From an uncultured bacterium (GTDB taxonomy: Bacteria; Patescibacteriota; Minisyncoccia; Phycocordibacterales; Zambryskibacteraceae), in contig CAWBLF010000001.1 of NCBI GenBank assembly GCA_963789635.1, positions 59,568-123,567 on the forward strand: a stretch of DNA of 64,000 nucleotides. The letters are read 5' to 3'. The position numbers and the translations under genes are program-made. Numbering within the stretch: the stretch's first letter is position 1; each line of letters begins with the position of its first letter. The notes under the pieces are model-generated. The model did not search any database. It saw only the letters and a list, made by a program, of their open reading frames with translations, and was not told the origin of the DNA. Below, piece by piece: positions 3,166 through 61,115 of the stretch.

Positions 3166-4530
3166 ATGCCACCCGAAAAGGAATCTCACATTGAGTTTAA
3201 TGACGACACAATAGCAAAAGCAAGCGCCGAGGCAATAAGTCTTGGTAAAAAAAGTTTTGAGGAACAAAAAAATGCTTTTGGTACGGTGCAAAACAGCATA
3301 AGTGATGGCACTAAGCAAGAAACCGAGAAGGAAAATCAACCTGTGGTCATAAAAAGTCTGCGAACTTACCAAGGTGACATCGCCGAAGCCATAAAAAATC
3401 AAAATGCGTCAGTGTTAACCATTGCAATGGCAGAACAACAAAGGGTTGGGGAGAGGGAAGATCAAAAAGAAAAGGAAGAATTCAAGCCACGAACGATTCT
3501 TCAAAGAATAAAAGGTGAAAAGCCCAAACCTCGCACCCCGACGCCAGAGTTTGTCCCTCCCCGTATTGAGCCAAAGCCAAAACAAGCACCAGCGACGTTC
3601 ACACCACCTCCCATCTTCAATGTTCCTCCTACCCAGAGCGTCAATGTAAAACCAAGCAGGCCGGAATTCCCGTCAAAGATTGTTTTTGGAGAAGCGCCAC
3701 AAAAAAAGATTAACGACGCGTTTCGACGTGACACAGTCACCATCGCGATAAGCATCCTACTTATCCTTCTCGGTGTAGGCGCTGTAGCGGGTTTTTATTT
3801 TTTACAAAAGACTCCTCCAAAACCTGCCGCTGCGCCAGCCTCTGAACTCACAATTATCCCTTATGATACCAAGGAAACTATATCGACTGCCGACCTTGGT
3901 AGAGAGTCTTTGTTGCAAAAACTGAATGCCATTCGACGCGGGGCTCCCATTGCCGACGGCTCTGTTCATTATGTGGAATTGACCAGTGGAGCGACCTCTA
4001 CCATCCCTATTTCAACCAATGATTTATTTTCAATTCTCAATACAAATATTCCGGGCAACGCTATTCGCGCCTTCGGTCCAAATTTTATGTTTGGTTTCTA
4101 TGGAATAAACGGCAACCAACCATTTATTCTCATATCTTTGAATTCATTTGAAAACGCATATGCAGGCATGCTCGAATGGGAAAAGGATATGAATACGGAT
4201 GTGGGGGCGATATTTTCTCCTTCGGCTGTGGCTCTGACACAATATGTGCCAATTAACACACCAGCGGTAGCCAGCACGAGCGGCGTCAAAAATGTCATCG
4301 CCACAGGCACTACAGCTGTCACCACTATTGCAAACCTCGGTCCGGCATCAGATAGTCAGTTTGGAGATGTCACCATTCAAAACAAAGATGCCAGGGTGCT
4401 AAAAAACTCCCGAGCAGAAACGATTCTTTTGTATTCATTCATCAATCAAAATACTTTACTCATAACATCCAACGAATCTGTGTTAAGTGCAATGATAGGC
4501 AAATTCACACAGCAACAATATACTCGCTAG
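3166..4530 (+). CDS. Hypothetical membrane-anchored protein (Pro-rich linker, single TM)
   Basis: 454-aa ORF with a Pro/Lys-rich segment (PKPRTPTPEFVPPRIEPKPKQAPATFTPPP), then the TM segment TVTIAISILLILLGVGAVAGFYFL and a large C-terminal domain. No family was recognised. Confidence 0.6.
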   Translation: MPPEKESHIEFNDDTIAKASAEAISLGKKSFEEQKNAFGTVQNSISDGTKQETEKENQPVVIKSLRTYQGDIAEAIKNQNASVLTIAMAEQQRVGEREDQKEKEEFKPRTILQRIKGEKPKPRTPTPEFVPPRIEPKPKQAPATFTPPPIFNVPPTQSVNVKPSRPEFPSKIVFGEAPQKKINDAFRRDTVTIAISILLILLGVGAVAGFYFLQKTPPKPAAAPASELTIIPYDTKETISTADLGRESLLQKLNAIRRGAPIADGSVHYVELTSGATSTIPISTNDLFSILNTNIPGNAIRAFGPNFMFGFYGINGNQPFILISLNSFENAYAGMLEWEKDMNTDVGAIFSPSAVALTQYVPINTPAVASTSGVKNVIATGTTAVTTIANLGPASDSQFGDVTIQNKDARVLKNSRAETILLYSFINQNTLLITSNESVLSAMIGKFTQQQYTR

Positions 4531-41177: not shown

Positions 41178-43591
41178 ATGCCCACACAAGAAATAAAGAA
41201 AAAAAATTCAGCAAACAATAAACGCAGGCTTGTGTTGCTCGACACTCACGCTATTTTGCATAGGGCTTACCACGCCCTGCCGGAGTTTTCTTCGTCAAAA
41301 GGCGAACCTACTGGGGCATTGTATGGGCTTGTCGCTATGCTCATAAAAATTATCGGCGAGCTCAAACCGGATTATGTGGTCGCTTGCTATGACCTGCCTG
41401 GCCCCACCTATCGTCATGAAGCGTATGAAGGTTACAAAGGCACCCGCAAAGAAATTGAAAGTGATCTGGTGGCTCAGATCAAGCGCTCAAACGACGTATT
41501 TAATTCCTTTCACATCCCCATATATTCATCCCCCGGTTTTGAAGCGGATGATATTCTCGGCACCATTGTGGAAGAGACAAAAAATGACAAAGACTTGGAA
41601 GTTGTGATTGCATCCGGTGATATGGACACATTGCAACTTGTAAATGGCGAGAAAGTGAAAGTTTACACTTTGAAAAAAGGGATTAACGACACGATTTTGT
41701 ACAACGAAAAAAAAGTGCAAGAAAGATTTGGTTTTCCGGCAAAACTTTTGCCGGACTACAAAGGGCTTCGAGGTGATCCATCGGACAACATCATCGGCAT
41801 AAAAGGGATCGGAGAAAAAACAGCCACTACTCTCATAACCACTTTTGGGGCCATTGAGAATATGTATAAACTTTTAAAGAAAGACAGTGAACCTTTCAAA
41901 AAAGCTGGAATTACACCGCGGATAATTGAGCTTTTGAAAAACAACGAGGAGGAAGCCATCTTTTCCAAAATGTTGGCGACCATTCGTCGTGATGCACCAA
42001 TCTCTTTTTCTTTGGGGAAGCCGTGGAGAGAGTCATTCTCTCAAACTGATGCCGAGGCCCTGTTTTTGGATTTGGATTTTCGCACCCTAAGTCAGCGTTT
42101 GTCTTCCGTCATGAATCTTGAAACCAAAAGTAGTTCGCCGGTTCAAGCGTCACTGACCGCGACACTAGACAGAATCGATAGACGGGCAAGAGCTGGAAGA
42201 GACGACTTTGGCATTGTGGGTGGTTGACTCCAATTTTACCAACCCTACCCAAGATGATGTTTTGCGTTTTGCAAAGACGAACGACTTTAAAAAAGCCAAA
42301 GAAATTATTTTTGCAGAGCTCAAAAAAAGAGGTGGGGAATTTGTTTATTATGAAATTGAAAAGCCCCTGATTCCGATTGTGAGACAAATGGAAGAGACGG
42401 GAGTGAAGATAGATAAAATTTATCTGAAGGAACTTTCGCGTAATTATCACAAAAAGCTCGATGCTTTGGAGAAAAAAATTTGGGCGTTGGCTGGAGAAGA
42501 ATTCAATATCAATTCCCCCAAACAAGTGGGGAATATCCTTTTCGACAAACTGCAGCTCACGGCCAAAAATATGAAGAAAACAGCAGGCGGGGAGAAATCG
42601 ACTCGGGAAAGCGAGCTCGAAAAACTAAAAGACCTGCACCCGATTATTCCGCTCATTCTTGAATACCGCGAGTTTCAAAAACTTCTCTCCACATATATAG
42701 ATAATATTCCGGATATGCTGGACAAAAACGATCGTCTGCATACCAGCTCTGCGCCAGGCGGGCACCACTACCGGCAGAATGTCTTCTACAAATCCGAATC
42801 TTCAAAATATTCCAATTAAGACCGAACTCGGAAGAAATATTCGAAATGCTTTCGTGGCCGAAGAAGGATACTCGTTTGTGTCATTTGATTATTCACAAAT
42901 TGAATTGAGAGTGGCGGCCATTCTTTCCGACGATGAAAAACTTTTGGAAATTTTTCGCAACGGAGAGGATGTCCACACCGCGGTGGCGTCGCAAGTCTTC
43001 GGCGTGCCGTTTGATAAAGTCGATAAGGAAATGCGTCGCAAGGCCAAAGTCATCAATTTTGGGATTCTTTACGGCATGGGCGTCAACGCTCTGAAGCAAA
43101 ACTTGGGAGGAACCCGCGAAGAAGCCCAGATTTTTTACAACGAATACTTTGCCAAATTTGAAGGAATTTCCAAATACCTGGACAGAATTAGAGCCGAAGC
43201 TACTCGAAAAGGGTACACAGAAACCCTTTTTGGAAGGCGTCGTTATGTGGAAGGTATTCAATCAAAGATTCCATACATTCGCTCAGCCGCAGAAAGGATG
43301 GCAATCAATGCGCCAATTCAAGGCACGGCCACCGGTGATATTATGAAACTTGCCATGAAAGCTATCGCCCAATTTATTAAAGATAAAAAACTTGGTAAAG
43401 ATGTAAGAATGCTTTTGCAAATTCATGACGAGTTGGTATTTGAAATTAAAAAAGAAAAAGTTAATACCGTCATGCCAGAAATAAAAAAACTAATGGAGAA
43501 TGTCCTTACGCCGGAACAATCCAAAGGAGTGGTATTGGTTGCCAACGGTGAAGCAGGCAAGAATTGGGGAGACGGAGTGGAAATTAACTGA
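41178..43591 (+). CDS. polA: DNA polymerase I (5'-3' exonuclease + family A polymerase; no recognisable 3'-5' exonuclease motifs), split into three ORFs by two +1 frame changes
   Basis: ORF 41178..42227: LLDTHAILHRAYHA...YKGTR...GFEADDILGT...GIKGIGEKTA. ORF 42208..42819: ...YYEIEKPLIPIVRQME.TGVKID...LILEYREFQKLLSTYID...RLHTS. ORF 42779..43591: (GTTTGR)MSSTNPNLQNIPIK...FDYSQIELRV...KVINFGILYGMG...QIHDELVFE. Confidence 0.9.
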
Positions 43592-44345: not shown

Positions 44346-44420
44346 GTAAATATAGACAAAACAAAATATTTTCGCTATAGTTTTGTTCATGTTTTGAGAG
44401 TTTTCCTTTTTTCTCAATTC

Positions 44421-44623
44421 CAATTAAATATGCGCCCATAGCTGTTTTGGTAGGTATACAGGGAATGTGGTAAGTTTGAAAAGTAAATAAATTATGCGCC
44501 CATAGCTGTTTTGGTAGGTATACAGGGAATGTGGTAAGTTTGAAAAGTAAATAAATTATGCGCCCATAGCTGTTTTGGTAGGTATACAGGGAATGTGGTA
44601 AGTTTGAAAAGTAAATAAATTAT
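44421..44623 (+). repeat. Tandem 64-bp repeat (3 units) made of the tRNA-Lys 5' end fused to a conserved core, directly abutting the tRNA
   Basis: Units start at 44432, 44496 and 44560 (period 64), and the true tRNA starts at 44624. The unit is GCGCCCATAGCT+GTTTTGGTAGGTATAC+agggaatgtggtaagtttgaaaagtaaataaattat. Confidence 0.9.
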
Positions 44624-44696
44624 GCGCCCATAGCTCAGCTGGTAGAGCAGATCCCTCTTAAGGATAAGGTCGTAGGTTCGATCCCTACTGGGCGCA
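44624..44696 (+). tRNA. tRNA-Lys (anticodon CTT)
   Basis: Hand-folded cloverleaf: acceptor GCGCCCA/TGGGCGC, D arm GCTC-AGCTGGTA-GAGC, anticodon loop CT-CTT-AA, T arm GTAGG-TTCGATC-CCTAC. Confidence 0.9.
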
Positions 44697-45029
44697 CAAA
44701 ATACAGAAACATCCCGCCTGCGCGGGATTTTCTGATTCTGTGCGAGGCGCAGACATGTTTTGTAGTAACAAAACAGTCGAGCCGGGGTCGCGAGATTTTT
44801 CTGCAGAAAAATACTTGTGACCACAAATACAGAAACATCCCGCCTGCGCGGGATTTTCTGATTCTGTGCGAGGCGCAGACATGTTTTGTAGTAACAAAAC
44901 AGTCGAGCCGGGTGAGAGCGAACACTCGGAGCTTTGCAAGACCTTGAGCGTTTTGTATTCAAAATGCGAAAGGTGTACAGATCCTGTAAGGATCGCGGAA
45001 ATTTTCAGTAGAAAATTATCTGTGACCAC
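44695..45029 (+). repeat. Two tandem copies of the tRNA-trailer composite element (H1-H2-H3-GTGACCAC); the second copy carries an ~85-nt insertion
   Basis: Copy 1 spans 44695-44824 and copy 2 spans 44822-45029. The first ~90 nt are identical (period 126). See findings for the hairpin structure. Confidence 0.85.
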
Positions 45030-49431: not shown

Positions 49432-49572
49432 GTGGTCACGAATAATTTTTGTTTCGTCAAACAAAAATTTTCTCGACCCCGGCTCACCATAGCCAATTGC
49501 TATTGGCTATATGTTTGCGCCTAGCACAGAATCAGAAAATCCCGCGCAGGCGGGATGTTTCTGTATTCTGTG
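49432..49572 (-). repeat. tRNA-trailer composite element copy (3' of tRNA-Arg-GCG)
   Basis: On the tRNA-sense strand: H1 identical to the 44.7-kb copies, H2 = ATAGCCAAT-agca-ATTGGCTAT, GAGCCGGGGTCG, H3 = AATTTTTGTTT-gacg-AAACAAAAATT, and the end ...TTCGTGACCAC. Confidence 0.85.
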
Positions 49573-59567: not shown

Positions 59568-59623
59568 ATGCATAACTAATCTTACACAAAAGCGTTATAT
59601 ATTAAAGCAAAAATATTGTGTTG

Positions 59624-59705
59624 TGGGCACGGAGAGATTTGAACTCTCAAGCCTTGCGGCATACGCTTCTGAAGCGTACGCGTATACCAGTTCCGCCACG
59701 TGCCC
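59624..59705 (-). tRNA. tRNA-Leu (anticodon CAG)
   Basis: Acceptor GGGCACG/CGTGCCC, anticodon arm TACGC-TT-CAG-AA-GCGTA, a long variable arm (TGCCGCAAGGCT), T arm GAGAG-TTCAAAT-CTCTC. Confidence 0.85.
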
Positions 59706-59763: not shown

Positions 59764-59783
59764 TACCAGTTCCGCCACGTGCC
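59764..59783 (-). repeat. Orphan 20-nt copy of the tRNA-Leu(CAG) 5' end (tRNA nt 2-21)
   Basis: TACCAGTTCCGCCACGTGCC at 59764-59783 is identical to 59685-59704 inside the tRNA. The copy lies 58 nt upstream of the tRNA in the tRNA orientation. Confidence 0.85.
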
Positions 59784-59794
59784 AAAATGTGTTT

Positions 59795-59930
59795 GTGGTC
59801 ACAGATAATTTCTTTGCCGTCGCAAAGAAATTTACGCGACCCCGCCTCGCGGTTTTGCGTACTCGCAAAACATCGCTGTGGCTCCCACAAAAGCACAAAA
59901 TCTGCCGAAGGGAGGTCTTTGTGTCTTTTG
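59795..59930 (-). repeat. tRNA-trailer composite element copy (3' of tRNA-Val)
   Basis: On the tRNA-sense strand: a divergent H1 (CACAAAAGACACAAAG...CTTTTGTG), H2 = GTTTTGCG-agta-CGCAAAAC, GAGGCGGGGTCGCG, H3 = AATTTCTTTGC-gacg-GCAAAGAAATT, and ...TCTGTGACCAC. Confidence 0.8.
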
Positions 59931-60003
59931 TGGGCGGTAGAGGATTCGAACCCCTGACATCTTCAGTGTAAATGAAGCGCTCTACCAACTGAGCTAACCG
60001 CCC
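59931..60003 (-). tRNA. tRNA-Val (anticodon TAC)
   Basis: Acceptor GGGCGGT/ACCGCCC, D arm GCTC-AGTTGGTA-GAGC, anticodon arm CTTCA-TT-TAC-AC-TGAAG, T arm AGGGG-TTCGAAT-CCTCT. Confidence 0.9.
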
Positions 60004-60251
60004 GTTACCTGCGTATACCTACCAAAACAGCTAATCGCCCGCTTACGTATACCTACCAAAACAGCTAATCGCCCGCTTACGTATACCTACCAAAACAGCT
60101 AACCAAACACAACACCTGCGTATACCTACCAAAACAGCTAACCAAACACAACACCTACGTATACCTACCAAAACAGCTAACCAAACACAACACCTGCGTA
60201 TACCTACCAAAACAGCTAACCGCCCATCACTCACGTATACCTACCAAAACA
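60004..60251 (-). repeat. Array of 7 copies of the 22-nt unit TTAGCTGTTTTGGTAGGTATAC (tRNA-sense strand) with short recurring spacers, directly 5' of tRNA-Val
   Basis: Plus-strand copies of GTATACCTACCAAAACAGCTAA lie at 60013, 60047, 60081, 60120, 60159, 60198 and 60235 (the last truncated). Spacers: tcgcccgcttac (x2), ccaaacacaacacct[g/a]c (x3) and ccgcccatcactcac. Confidence 0.9.
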
Positions 60252-60326
60252 AACGACTATGTCTGTACAACTTACAACAAAACTACTCTTAATGCCAGAT
60301 TATCAAATTTACTATATATTAGACGC

Positions 60327-61115
60327 ATGTCTATTTTGGATGAAATAAAAATTCTTTATGAGGATGATAATATTTTGGTGATCAATAAACCGGCTGGCCT
60401 TGCCGTGCACGCTGATGGCCGGACAAAAGAAGAAACGCTTGCCGACTGGGTGCTGGCCCATTATCCGGAGATGAAAGATGTGGGGGAGCGCGCGAGGCCG
60501 AGTAACGAATTACGAATAACGAACGATGATTCAATATCCAATTCTAAATTCGAAATGCAAAATTCTAATGTTTTGCGACCGGGAATAGTTCACCGTATTG
60601 ACCGCGACACTTCCGGAGCACTTATCATGGCCAAAAGCCAAAAAGCATTTGAATTTTTGAAGTCTCAATTTAAAAATCGATCCGTCCGCAAGGAATATCA
60701 CGCTTTTGTCTATGGCAACATTGATGAAAACTTTGGCACCATAGATAAGCCGATCGGCAGAAGCAGAAGTGATTTTCGCAAATGGTCGGCAGAAACAGGA
60801 GCCCGGGGGGAACTTCGGGATGCTCTGACTTATTTTGAAGTTATTAAGCGAGGTAAAGACGCCACTTTTATACGGGTGTTGCCCAAGACCGGTCGGACGC
60901 ACCAGATACGCGTGCATTTCAAAGCAATACATCACCCAATAGTGGCCGATGCGCTCTACGCTCCAAAAAAAGATAAACTTTTGGGATTTCAAAGAGTGGC
61001 TCTTCACGCATATTCGTTGGAGTTCAAAGACTTGTCCGGCAAAACTGTCGTAGTAACCGCTCCGTATCCTGCCGATTTTTTGCACGCAATGGAAGAATTT
61101 GATAAGAAAAGCTAA
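60327..61115 (+). CDS. RluA-family pseudouridine synthase (no S4 domain) with a ~30-aa insertion before the catalytic motif
   Basis: DDNILVINKPAGLAVH, catalytic HRIDRDTSGALIMAKS, and TGRTHQIRVH. Extra segment: ERARPSNELRITNDDSISNSKFEMQNSNVL. Confidence 0.85.
   Translation: MSILDEIKILYEDDNILVINKPAGLAVHADGRTKEETLADWVLAHYPEMKDVGERARPSNELRITNDDSISNSKFEMQNSNVLRPGIVHRIDRDTSGALIMAKSQKAFEFLKSQFKNRSVRKEYHAFVYGNIDENFGTIDKPIGRSRSDFRKWSAETGARGELRDALTYFEVIKRGKDATFIRVLPKTGRTHQIRVHFKAIHHPIVADALYAPKKDKLLGFQRVALHAYSLEFKDLSGKTVVVTAPYPADFLHAMEEFDKKS

Follow-up and report, generated by a model that had tools for sequence, protein, structure and literature searches.

Decayed tRNA copies with a common rewritten D-arm form probable leader arrays upstream of tRNA genes in Patescibacteria

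A stretch of 64,000 nucleotides (nt) from an uncultured bacterium of the Patescibacteriota (assembly GCA_963789635.1, contig CAWBLF010000001.1, positions 59,568 to 123,567 of the forward strand; hereafter the window) contains arrays of short tandem units directly upstream of two tRNA genes, tRNA-Lys(ctt) and tRNA-Val(tac), and all units share a 16-nt core, GTTTTGGTAGGTATAC. We consider that these units are probably tandem, internally decayed pseudo-tRNA copies located in the leader between promoter and tRNA, and that the core may have come to be shared through exchange combined with selection. This reading builds on the homology of the units to the cognate tRNA, their anatomy, their distribution and their conservation, all of which are directly observed. 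Loci and contigs other than the window are referred to by L numbers.

The array of tRNA-Lys consists of three perfect 64-bp units, each composed of GCGCCCATAGCT (tRNA nt 1-12), GTTTTGGTAGGTATAC and 36 further nt. Their sequences, their starts (44432, 44496 and 44560, in register with the tRNA at 44624) and the exact copy of tRNA nt 1-12 at the head of each unit agree with the original prediction, which was made from the sequence of this region. At tRNA-Val, seven exact copies of the 16-mer occur at 60013-60250 with spacings of 34, 34, 39, 39, 39 and 37 bp, and they are separated by linkers of 6-11 nt plus copies of tRNA-Val nt 1-12 that are either intact or degenerate. The seven recurrences predicted here hold for the 16-mer; only six were found for the 20-mer including AGCT, as AGCT stands before six of the seven Val cores and the most distal one is preceded by CGTTT. 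Similarly, the predicted joining of these cores to the tRNA-Val 5' end is clean in only three units (GGGCGGTTAGCT once and GGGCGATTAGCT twice), and three others have the degenerate form GTGTTTGGTTAGCT. In both arrays the units are contiguous, arranged head-to-tail, on the same strand as the intact tRNA and directly upstream of it (Table 1). The 10 exact copies of the 16-mer in the window compare with a mean of 0.44 in shuffled sequences, none of 100 shuffles reaching 10, and no further diverged copies beyond chance, and none away from tRNAs, were detected in the window. A third pseudo-copy, which lacks the core, belongs to tRNA-Leu(cag) (59623-59705); it is found 79 nt upstream of that gene, with decayed tRNA-like sequence behind it.

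Table 1. Features of the array-bearing tRNA loci and of a core-free pseudo-copy in the window (position 1 is the first nucleotide of the window)
Feature	Positions	Strand	Remarks
Sigma-70-like promoter TAGACA-17-TATAGT	44353-44381	+	Upstream of Lys array; 10/12 consensus matches
Pseudo-tRNA-Lys unit 1	44432-44495	+	nt 1-12 copy 44432-44443, core 44444-44459, 36-nt remainder 44460-44495
Pseudo-tRNA-Lys unit 2	44496-44559	+	Same sequence as unit 3
Pseudo-tRNA-Lys unit 3	44560-44623	+	Contains TTGGTA-N18-TGGTAAGTT (44596-44604), possible extended -10 promoter
Functional tRNA-Lys(ctt), CCA not encoded	44624-44697	+	ARAGORN; Rfam tRNA model, 68.5 bits
Conserved terminator-like hairpin	44703-44745	+	After tRNA-Lys; compensatory stem changes in L261
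20-nt copy of tRNA-Leu(cag) 5' end	59764-59783	-	Third pseudo-copy in the window, without core
Functional tRNA-Val(tac)	59930-60003	-	ARAGORN; Rfam tRNA model
Array of seven short pseudo-tRNA-Val units	60004-60250	-	Upstream of tRNA-Val(tac)
Val cores	60013-28, 60047-62, 60081-96, 60120-35, 60159-74, 60198-213, 60235-50	-	
Sigma-70-like promoter TAGACA-16-TAAATT	60306-60333	-	Upstream of Val array; 9/12 consensus matches only

The original prediction regarded the core as a foreign sequence joined to the tRNA at nt 12/13, with the likeness to the tRNA ending there save for a shared TGGTAG. Comparison with the cognate genes points elsewhere: each unit is a tandem decayed copy of the adjacent tRNA gene itself and not a junction with foreign DNA. 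The unit keeps tRNA nt 1-12, the D-loop TTGGTAG (TGGTAG for Lys) and a few bases from nt 26 onward, and only nt 13-25 are replaced (CAGTTGGTAGAGC to GTTTT-GGTA-GGTA-TAC): CAG is changed to GTY and AGC to GTATAC, GGTA is duplicated, and all D-stem pairs are destroyed. The core is thus the rewritten nt 13-25, after which the cognate sequence resumes, the two bases 3' of the core in the window being tRNA nt 26-27. With no D-stem, anticodon arm, T-arm or 3' acceptor strand left, the unit cannot fold as a tRNA, and when ARAGORN and Rfam were applied to the arrays only the terminal gene was called as a tRNA and no unit was called.

Continuation of the cognate sequence past the core was also examined in 18 strictly defined loci (see below), where the 5 nt 3' of the core match cognate nt 26-30 at a mean of 3.0 of 5 positions, a value that 10,000 permutations of the cognate assignment never reached; in 16 of the 18 both of the first two nt agree, and examples are AGATC (Lys), GCCAC (Thr) and AATCG (Ala). 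The spacer between core and tRNA is 42-49 nt in 16 of 25 loci, which corresponds to units of 70-77 nt, the length of a tRNA, and T-loop remnants (TTCGAT, GTTTGA) are present at the position expected for a tRNA copy. The Lys (64 nt) and Val (34-39 nt) units of the window are internally deleted versions of such tRNA-length units. We did not adopt TAAGTTTGAGAAAA as a purely decayed T-arm: its origin is ambiguous because the same motif serves as an ordinary promoter or leader motif at L202, a locus free of pseudo-copies. Two other sources of the core, a chimera with the D-arm of tRNA-Leu (shared GGTATACGC) and templating from the complement of the T-arm or trailer, offered short similarities only and were judged coincidental. 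A mini open reading frame (ORF), ATG-NNN-NNN-TAG, formed by AT plus G1…U8A9G10, was rejected as well, since it also occurs at real tRNAs, is absent at Val and has no ribosome-binding site.

To survey the distribution of the core, the exact 16-mer was scanned in one genome per species, which yielded at least 119 stretches. Among the matches listed, at least 18 loci by a strict test (at least about 24 by eye) have the 16-mer preceded by the first 12 nt of the tRNA that starts 10-55 nt downstream, and the remaining matches are chance occurrences in coding DNA of other phyla. The rewritten D-arm stands before tRNAs in at least about 24 Patescibacteria genomes, and at least seven isoacceptors were found behind it, namely Lys(ctt), Val(gac, tac), Phe(gaa), Thr(tgt, cgt), Ala(tgc) and Asn(gtt). 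The core always follows directly after tRNA nt 12 (…TAGCT), and every core-bearing tRNA has the D-arm TAGCTCAGYTGGTAGAGC; no core was found at about 30 nearby tRNAs whose D-arm differs. The bin labels include Nomurabacteria, Taylorbacteria, Yonathbacteria, Paceibacterota and Parcubacteria, and several bins were automatically named 'Saccharibacteria', a label that we do not trust. The core is therefore neither confined to the loci of the window nor placed at random positions elsewhere, and because it is common to many tRNA loci and genomes, local slippage alone does not explain its sharing, as had been argued originally. Multi-unit arrays are also present in other assemblies (L015, L019, L054, L070, L104, L113 and L115), and the window and L261 each have three units, L012 has none and other loci have 1-3. 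In secondary units the core changes only as transitions at positions 3, 11 and 15, and decayed versions were seen in L254 and in the distal units of L113 and L057.

We also analyzed samples collected independently of the core, comprising 105 distinct loci anchored on the tRNA-Lys(ctt) body and seven tRNA-Phe loci anchored on an upstream protein of 76-85 aa. A GTYTTGGTAG pseudo-copy was found in three of the 105 tRNA-Lys(ctt) loci, with varying 3' halves (ATAAC, GCTC), and other pseudo-fragments in about eight more. One of the seven tRNA-Phe loci has a unit, whose core is decayed (GTTTTAATAGAATGCA), and in the six without a unit the distance from stop codon to tRNA is 2-38 nt. In the metagenome sample of Lys(ctt), pseudo-copies occur upstream of the live gene only, the 224 nt downstream holding just a real second tRNA. 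Pseudo-5' copies without the core were found at tRNA-Leu in the window and at Lys, Cys, Gln, Leu and Met genes in metagenome contigs, and several of them carry hairpin or other inserts in the D-loop region.

Some of these core-free copies have features of their own. Upstream of tRNA-Lys(ctt) in L136, L186, L187, L203 and L179, pseudo 5' fragments are immediately followed by GC-rich hairpins, and the fragments of L203 and L179 themselves pair with what is left of the 3' acceptor strand further downstream. The tRNA-Cys pseudo-copies (L151, L176 and L204) share a conserved D-loop insert, C(A/G)TGAGCGYAGCGAA, and a tRNA-Gln pseudo-copy (L252) contains the D-loop insert GTGAAGCGTAGCG; these inserts are another recurrent remodelling of the D-region in pseudo-tRNA leaders. 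In addition, L015 contains at about 3170-3330 a tRNA-like gene (GCCGTTGTAGCTCAGTTGGTAGAGCACGTCATTGGTTAAT…) that ARAGORN does not call, perhaps owing to an interrupted anticodon loop, and that is preceded by two short pseudo-units with variant cores; group I introns have been reported in Patescibacteria tRNAs (PMC13011429).

Close relatives of the window were used to look for signs of constraint. L261, an independent assembly from a Joint Genome Institute (JGI) sample, has the promoter, three 64-nt units and tRNA-Lys in the same order. Its holA, the gene flanking the Lys array, is 90% identical to that of the window in protein, 85% in DNA and 70% at third codon positions; the array is 96-97% and the tRNA 97% identical, and the flanking spacers are only 51% and 33% identical with many indels. 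This indicates either constraint on the unit or a recent exchange of the block. The units of L261 differ from those of the window at two positions (GGTAAGTTTG against GGTAGTTTTG), and all three units in each genome carry that genome's own two-base variant, a pattern that we interpret as concerted evolution. In L012, whose holA is 78% identical, the conserved promoter is followed directly by tRNA-Lys with no unit. For tRNA-Val(gac), L070 and L115 are 100% identical in the tRNA, 79% in the array and 70% in the flanks, and the best-conserved parts of the array are the fragment, the core and about 9 nt. Between genomes that share only about 50-70% identity in the flanking protein, the core is likewise kept although the remainder of the unit is scrambled. 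The signs of some constraint (window/L261 and L070/L115) would fit a functional leader module, one of the options offered by the original prediction.

In the scenario that we favour, a tRNA gene was probably duplicated in tandem and its upstream copy decayed. The arrays would then grow, shrink and homogenise through slipped-strand or unequal recombination between the 12-nt direct repeats, a process that would leave nt 1-12 identical to the selected gene and would need no recombinase. One core across tRNA types may have resulted from exchange between pseudo-copies through the TAGCT…TTGGTAG homology, by gene conversion or template switching, and purifying selection would act with this inter-locus exchange to keep the core. 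RNase P cleaves pre-tRNA at +1 and thereby removes the 5' leader. The location of the arrays, downstream of a sigma-70-type promoter and ahead of the mature tRNA, makes their transcription as a long 5' leader most likely, and this cut would remove that leader. The promoters are consensus matches from promoter scans, and TAGACA…TATAGTTTT of the Lys promoter is kept in L012 and L261 within a diverged spacer. If the arrays have a role, they would most likely influence in cis how the downstream tRNA is expressed or processed, and the Lys unit may act as an added promoter (TTGGTA-N18-TGnTAnnnT).

Several observations weigh against this scenario. One identical 16-mer in pseudo-copies of different tRNAs is not predicted by neutral decay plus slippage, and an independent origin of the core is implausible because about six substitutions and a 3-nt gain from the D-arm would be needed. 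The proposed inter-locus exchange would have to rely on very short homology. The core cannot simply descend from the adjacent gene, as the Lys units read GTTTTGG where the live gene reads CAGCTGG. Even pseudo-copies that carry a different insert (L136 and L187) have their left boundary at nt 12/13, which hints at a special position. The core-independent samples show sporadic presence and a variable 3' half of the core (ATAAC, GCTC, AATGCA); that the 16-mer is perfectly conserved in the genome scan is partly a search effect (ascertainment). Moreover, the constraint signal between the window and L261 could reflect a recent exchange of the array-plus-tRNA block. Finally, a general functional signature is lacking: -10-like hexamers lie at distances of 1-23 nt from the core, the extended -10 motif TGnTAnnnT occurs in 2 of 25 proximal spacers versus 1.6 expected by chance, and the short Val units are too small for a promoter.

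Among the alternatives, a neutral one deserves to be weighed first, although we regard it as rather doubtful. It holds that the units are functionless remains of tRNA duplication, maintained by slippage dynamics, and that the shared core is a historical accident. The sporadic distribution and the decayed versions (L254, L113 distal and L057 distal) fit this idea, and plastid trnF arrays, which are similar in structure, are generally regarded as non-functional (PMC3786074). However, the array identity of 96-97% between the window and L261 contrasts with 70% at third codon positions, the core is conserved where the rest of the unit is scrambled, and independent decay cannot give identity across tRNA types.

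Selection on the core can also be placed at the centre. The rewritten D-arm, TAGCT-GTYTTGGTAG-GTATAC, might be a cis element of tRNA genes that is under selection in Parcubacteria regardless of tRNA type, serves as a tandem binding or processing signal in leader or DNA, and spreads by D-arm-templated conversion; on the present sequences we think this unlikely. Another reading, which we would likewise not expect to be correct, views the 28-nt module (nt 1-12 plus core) as a tandem functional RNA or DNA site, a binding or decoy array for a factor that would normally read the 5' acceptor strand, U8 and the D-loop of the tRNA, such as a processing or modification enzyme or a regulator. The long units (64-77 nt) and the short Val units (34-39 nt) have nothing but this module in common, so a role in binding or as a processing signal is possible; the core is the part best conserved between diverged genomes, with secondary units varying only by the three transitions mentioned above; the rewriting removes exactly the D-stem partners and keeps U8, G10-U12 and G18G19; and three copies are kept in two diverged genomes. 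On the other side, leader-plus-tRNA folds are not more stable than shuffles (z = -0.73 and +0.32), and the only notable predicted pairing in the leader, between the pseudo 5' strand and the real 3' acceptor strand, is deemed trivial. A search of the arrays against Rfam 15, even at E = 10, recovered no family but tRNA. The module is absent from most orthologous loci and hence dispensable, no candidate binding protein was identified, and the conservation of nt 1-12 is explicable by homogenisation against the live gene.

Amplified promoters are about as improbable. Each unit would then carry a promoter, and the array would raise or uncouple the transcription of a single-copy tRNA gene. In the window as well as in L261 the Lys units agree with TTGGTA-N18-TGnTAnnnT, the two substitutions of L261 turning TGGTAAGTT into TGGTAGTTT, still TGnTAnnnT at the same place; L022 has TTGGTA-18-TACAAT and L037 has TTGGTA-18-GATAAT; and the unit-free tRNA-Phe genes, so close behind a stop codon, have no space for a promoter of their own. 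Nevertheless, the pattern is not general, the frequency of TGnTAnnnT in proximal spacers showing no enrichment, and the scans report nothing beyond consensus matches. Neither this pattern nor a plausible -10 element is present in the 34-39-nt Val units. Because the distance between core and -10-like hexamer varies, we rejected the core as a fixed promoter element; a -35 role of TTGGTA works in short-spacer variants only, and a sigma-54 site was dismissed by inspection because its spacing is one base off.

We find it hard to credit the original suggestion of site-specific recombination or insertion, in which a small mobile cassette would place the core at tRNA position 12/13 and regenerate the 5' end, for instance by a long target duplication. 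Such a cassette would account for the same core at the same junction after TAGCT in seven isoacceptors and many genomes, for the sporadic distribution with clean 'empty' sites in relatives, and for the hairpin inserts exactly after nt 12 in other pseudo-copies (L136 and L187). Insertion does not predict, however, that cognate nt 26-30 and T-loop remnants continue past the core. The duplicated leader ranges from 0 to about 21 nt, so a target duplication would not be constant in length, and no inverted ends were found; a transposon or miniature inverted-repeat transposable element was rejected on these grounds. Integrase and recombinase genes, which the original prediction suggested looking for, are missing at the loci, whose neighbours are conserved housekeeping genes (gene order tsaE-polA-holA-tRNA-Lys-doxX-spoU-fpg-murC-like at the Lys locus, and a rluA-like gene beside tRNA-Val), and the units are contiguous, which also speaks against att repeats made by an integrase. 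Copies away from tRNAs are lacking in the window, and the 11 matches of the exact core in viral contigs were all due to chance; a search of viral contigs with TAGCTGTYTTGGTAG returned chance matches and one coding repeat (L309).

Mis-assembly of a repeat is very improbable: assemblers can mis-size perfect repeats and the polA gene of the window has two frameshifts relative to an intact ortholog, a sign of assembly errors or pseudogenes, but the same three-unit array with its own variant in an independent assembly from another sample (L261) indicates that neither the array nor its copy number is an artefact, and multi-unit arrays recur in the seven further assemblies named above.

Other features of the region are recorded here in their own right. 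The polA gene (41178-43591, +) runs through three reading frames, the frame changing near 42161-42169 and again near 42746-42762, either through assembly indel errors or because it is a pseudogene; its ortholog in L261 is intact, with 803 aa and 93-95% identity. Homologues of holA come from metagenome bins of Parcubacteria/Paceibacterota. The syntenic tRNA-Lys has the anticodon CTT in the window (44624-44697) and TTT in L261 (3972-4045) and L012 (4340-4413), the acceptor and T arms being identical in all three and the 27-43 pair compensated in L012, as if point mutation had switched the isoacceptor at this single locus. The same long terminator-like hairpin (ACAGAAACATCCCGCCTGCGCGGGATTTTCTG…) occurs at 44703 and 44829 (+) and at 49564 and 59489 (-); it follows tRNA-Lys (twice), tRNA-Arg(gcg) and tRNA-Arg(tct), and the final bases of the tRNA form the start of its stem. 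A perfect 88-nt direct repeat 3' of tRNA-Lys (44699-44786 and 44825-44912, +) duplicates this terminator plus a second hairpin, and L261 has a single full copy of it. An intergenic element composed of GGGTCGCG, an AT-rich hairpin and GTGACCAC lies near tRNAs at 44785-44824 and 44990-45029 (+) and at 59842-59796 (-), and is conserved in several Parcubacteria contigs (L012, L161, L258 and L261).

If the units are relics only, genomes of the Candidate Phyla Radiation (CPR) would, despite extreme reduction, carry and turn over tRNA pseudo-copies in leaders, a point of which annotators and phylogenetic users of tRNA flanks should be aware, as is recognised for plastid trnL-F markers. If the shared D-arm is selected, as suggested by the window/L261 comparison and the identity across tRNA types, it would mark an undescribed step in tRNA expression, processing or modification in bacteria not yet grown alone, and the 28-nt module would be a concrete bait for the partner involved. 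A core that is a selected cis element would represent an unrecognised class of regulatory or semi-mobile module associated with tRNA genes in reduced CPR genomes, and it would in addition document D-arm-guided exchange of sequence between non-allelic tRNA loci.

Known repeat systems differ from these arrays to various degrees. An array of clustered regularly interspaced short palindromic repeats (CRISPR) does not fit, as the Lys units do not differ from one another at all and the Val 'spacers' consist of pieces of tRNA; the only match to a CRISPR repeat was a weak chance hit on the terminator hairpin (18 bits versus a cut-off of 35 bits). Type III toxin-antitoxin systems combine 34-45-nt ToxI repeats with a toxin gene, while here a tRNA and a terminator follow and no downstream ORF lies in the same transcription unit. 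Stable-RNA operons such as rrn carry the tandem promoters P1 and P2, and the Lys units alone resemble them as serial promoter-like elements before a stable-RNA gene; those promoters are not pseudo-copies of the gene, however, and a promoter role here is putative and implausible for the Val units. The attL and attR sites of integrases at tRNA genes also place a partial tRNA copy beside an intact gene, but they flank kilobases of mobile DNA with an integrase and usually involve the 3' part, whereas the copies described here are adjacent tandem 5' parts with no mobile genes. Distal to tyrT in E. coli, a repeat of 178 bp that includes the final ~19 nt of tRNA-Tyr is present about three times. These copies are likewise tandem repeats that carry a tRNA fragment, attributed to unequal recombination; they differ in their location on the 3' side, in their 3'-end fragments, in being restricted to a single locus and in having no remodelled motif across tRNAs.

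The closest described analogue appears to be the plastid trnF(GAA) pseudogene arrays in trnL-F spacers of Brassicaceae, Asteraceae, Solanaceae and others, where 1-7 partial copies, 32-73 bp long, stand in tandem immediately 5' of the functional gene (PMC3786074), and the earlier statement that no element with this organisation had been described was thus too strong. The arrays reported here belong with this type: their copies are head-to-tail and on the same strand, have cognate homology beyond the junction, do not form tRNAs and vary in number. Both systems consist of tandem partial copies built from pieces of the cognate tRNA 5' of a live gene near a sigma-70-type promoter, and both show copy numbers that differ between relatives and a recurrent short border motif between copies. 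The plastid copies, on the other hand, mostly lack acceptor-stem residues and keep the anticodon domain, whereas nt 1-12 are kept and the anticodon arm is lost here; and the plastid arrays concern one tRNA, in contrast to one rewritten D-arm in at least seven isoacceptors and many bacterial genomes. The core string was not found in any paper by our literature search, and the study of tRNA introns in Patescibacteria does not mention upstream fragments. Decayed, D-arm-rewritten tRNA copies before tRNA genes are therefore a real and apparently undescribed pattern, and what is new relative to plastid trnF is the retained 5' acceptor strand together with a remodelled D-arm that is common to tRNA types and genomes.

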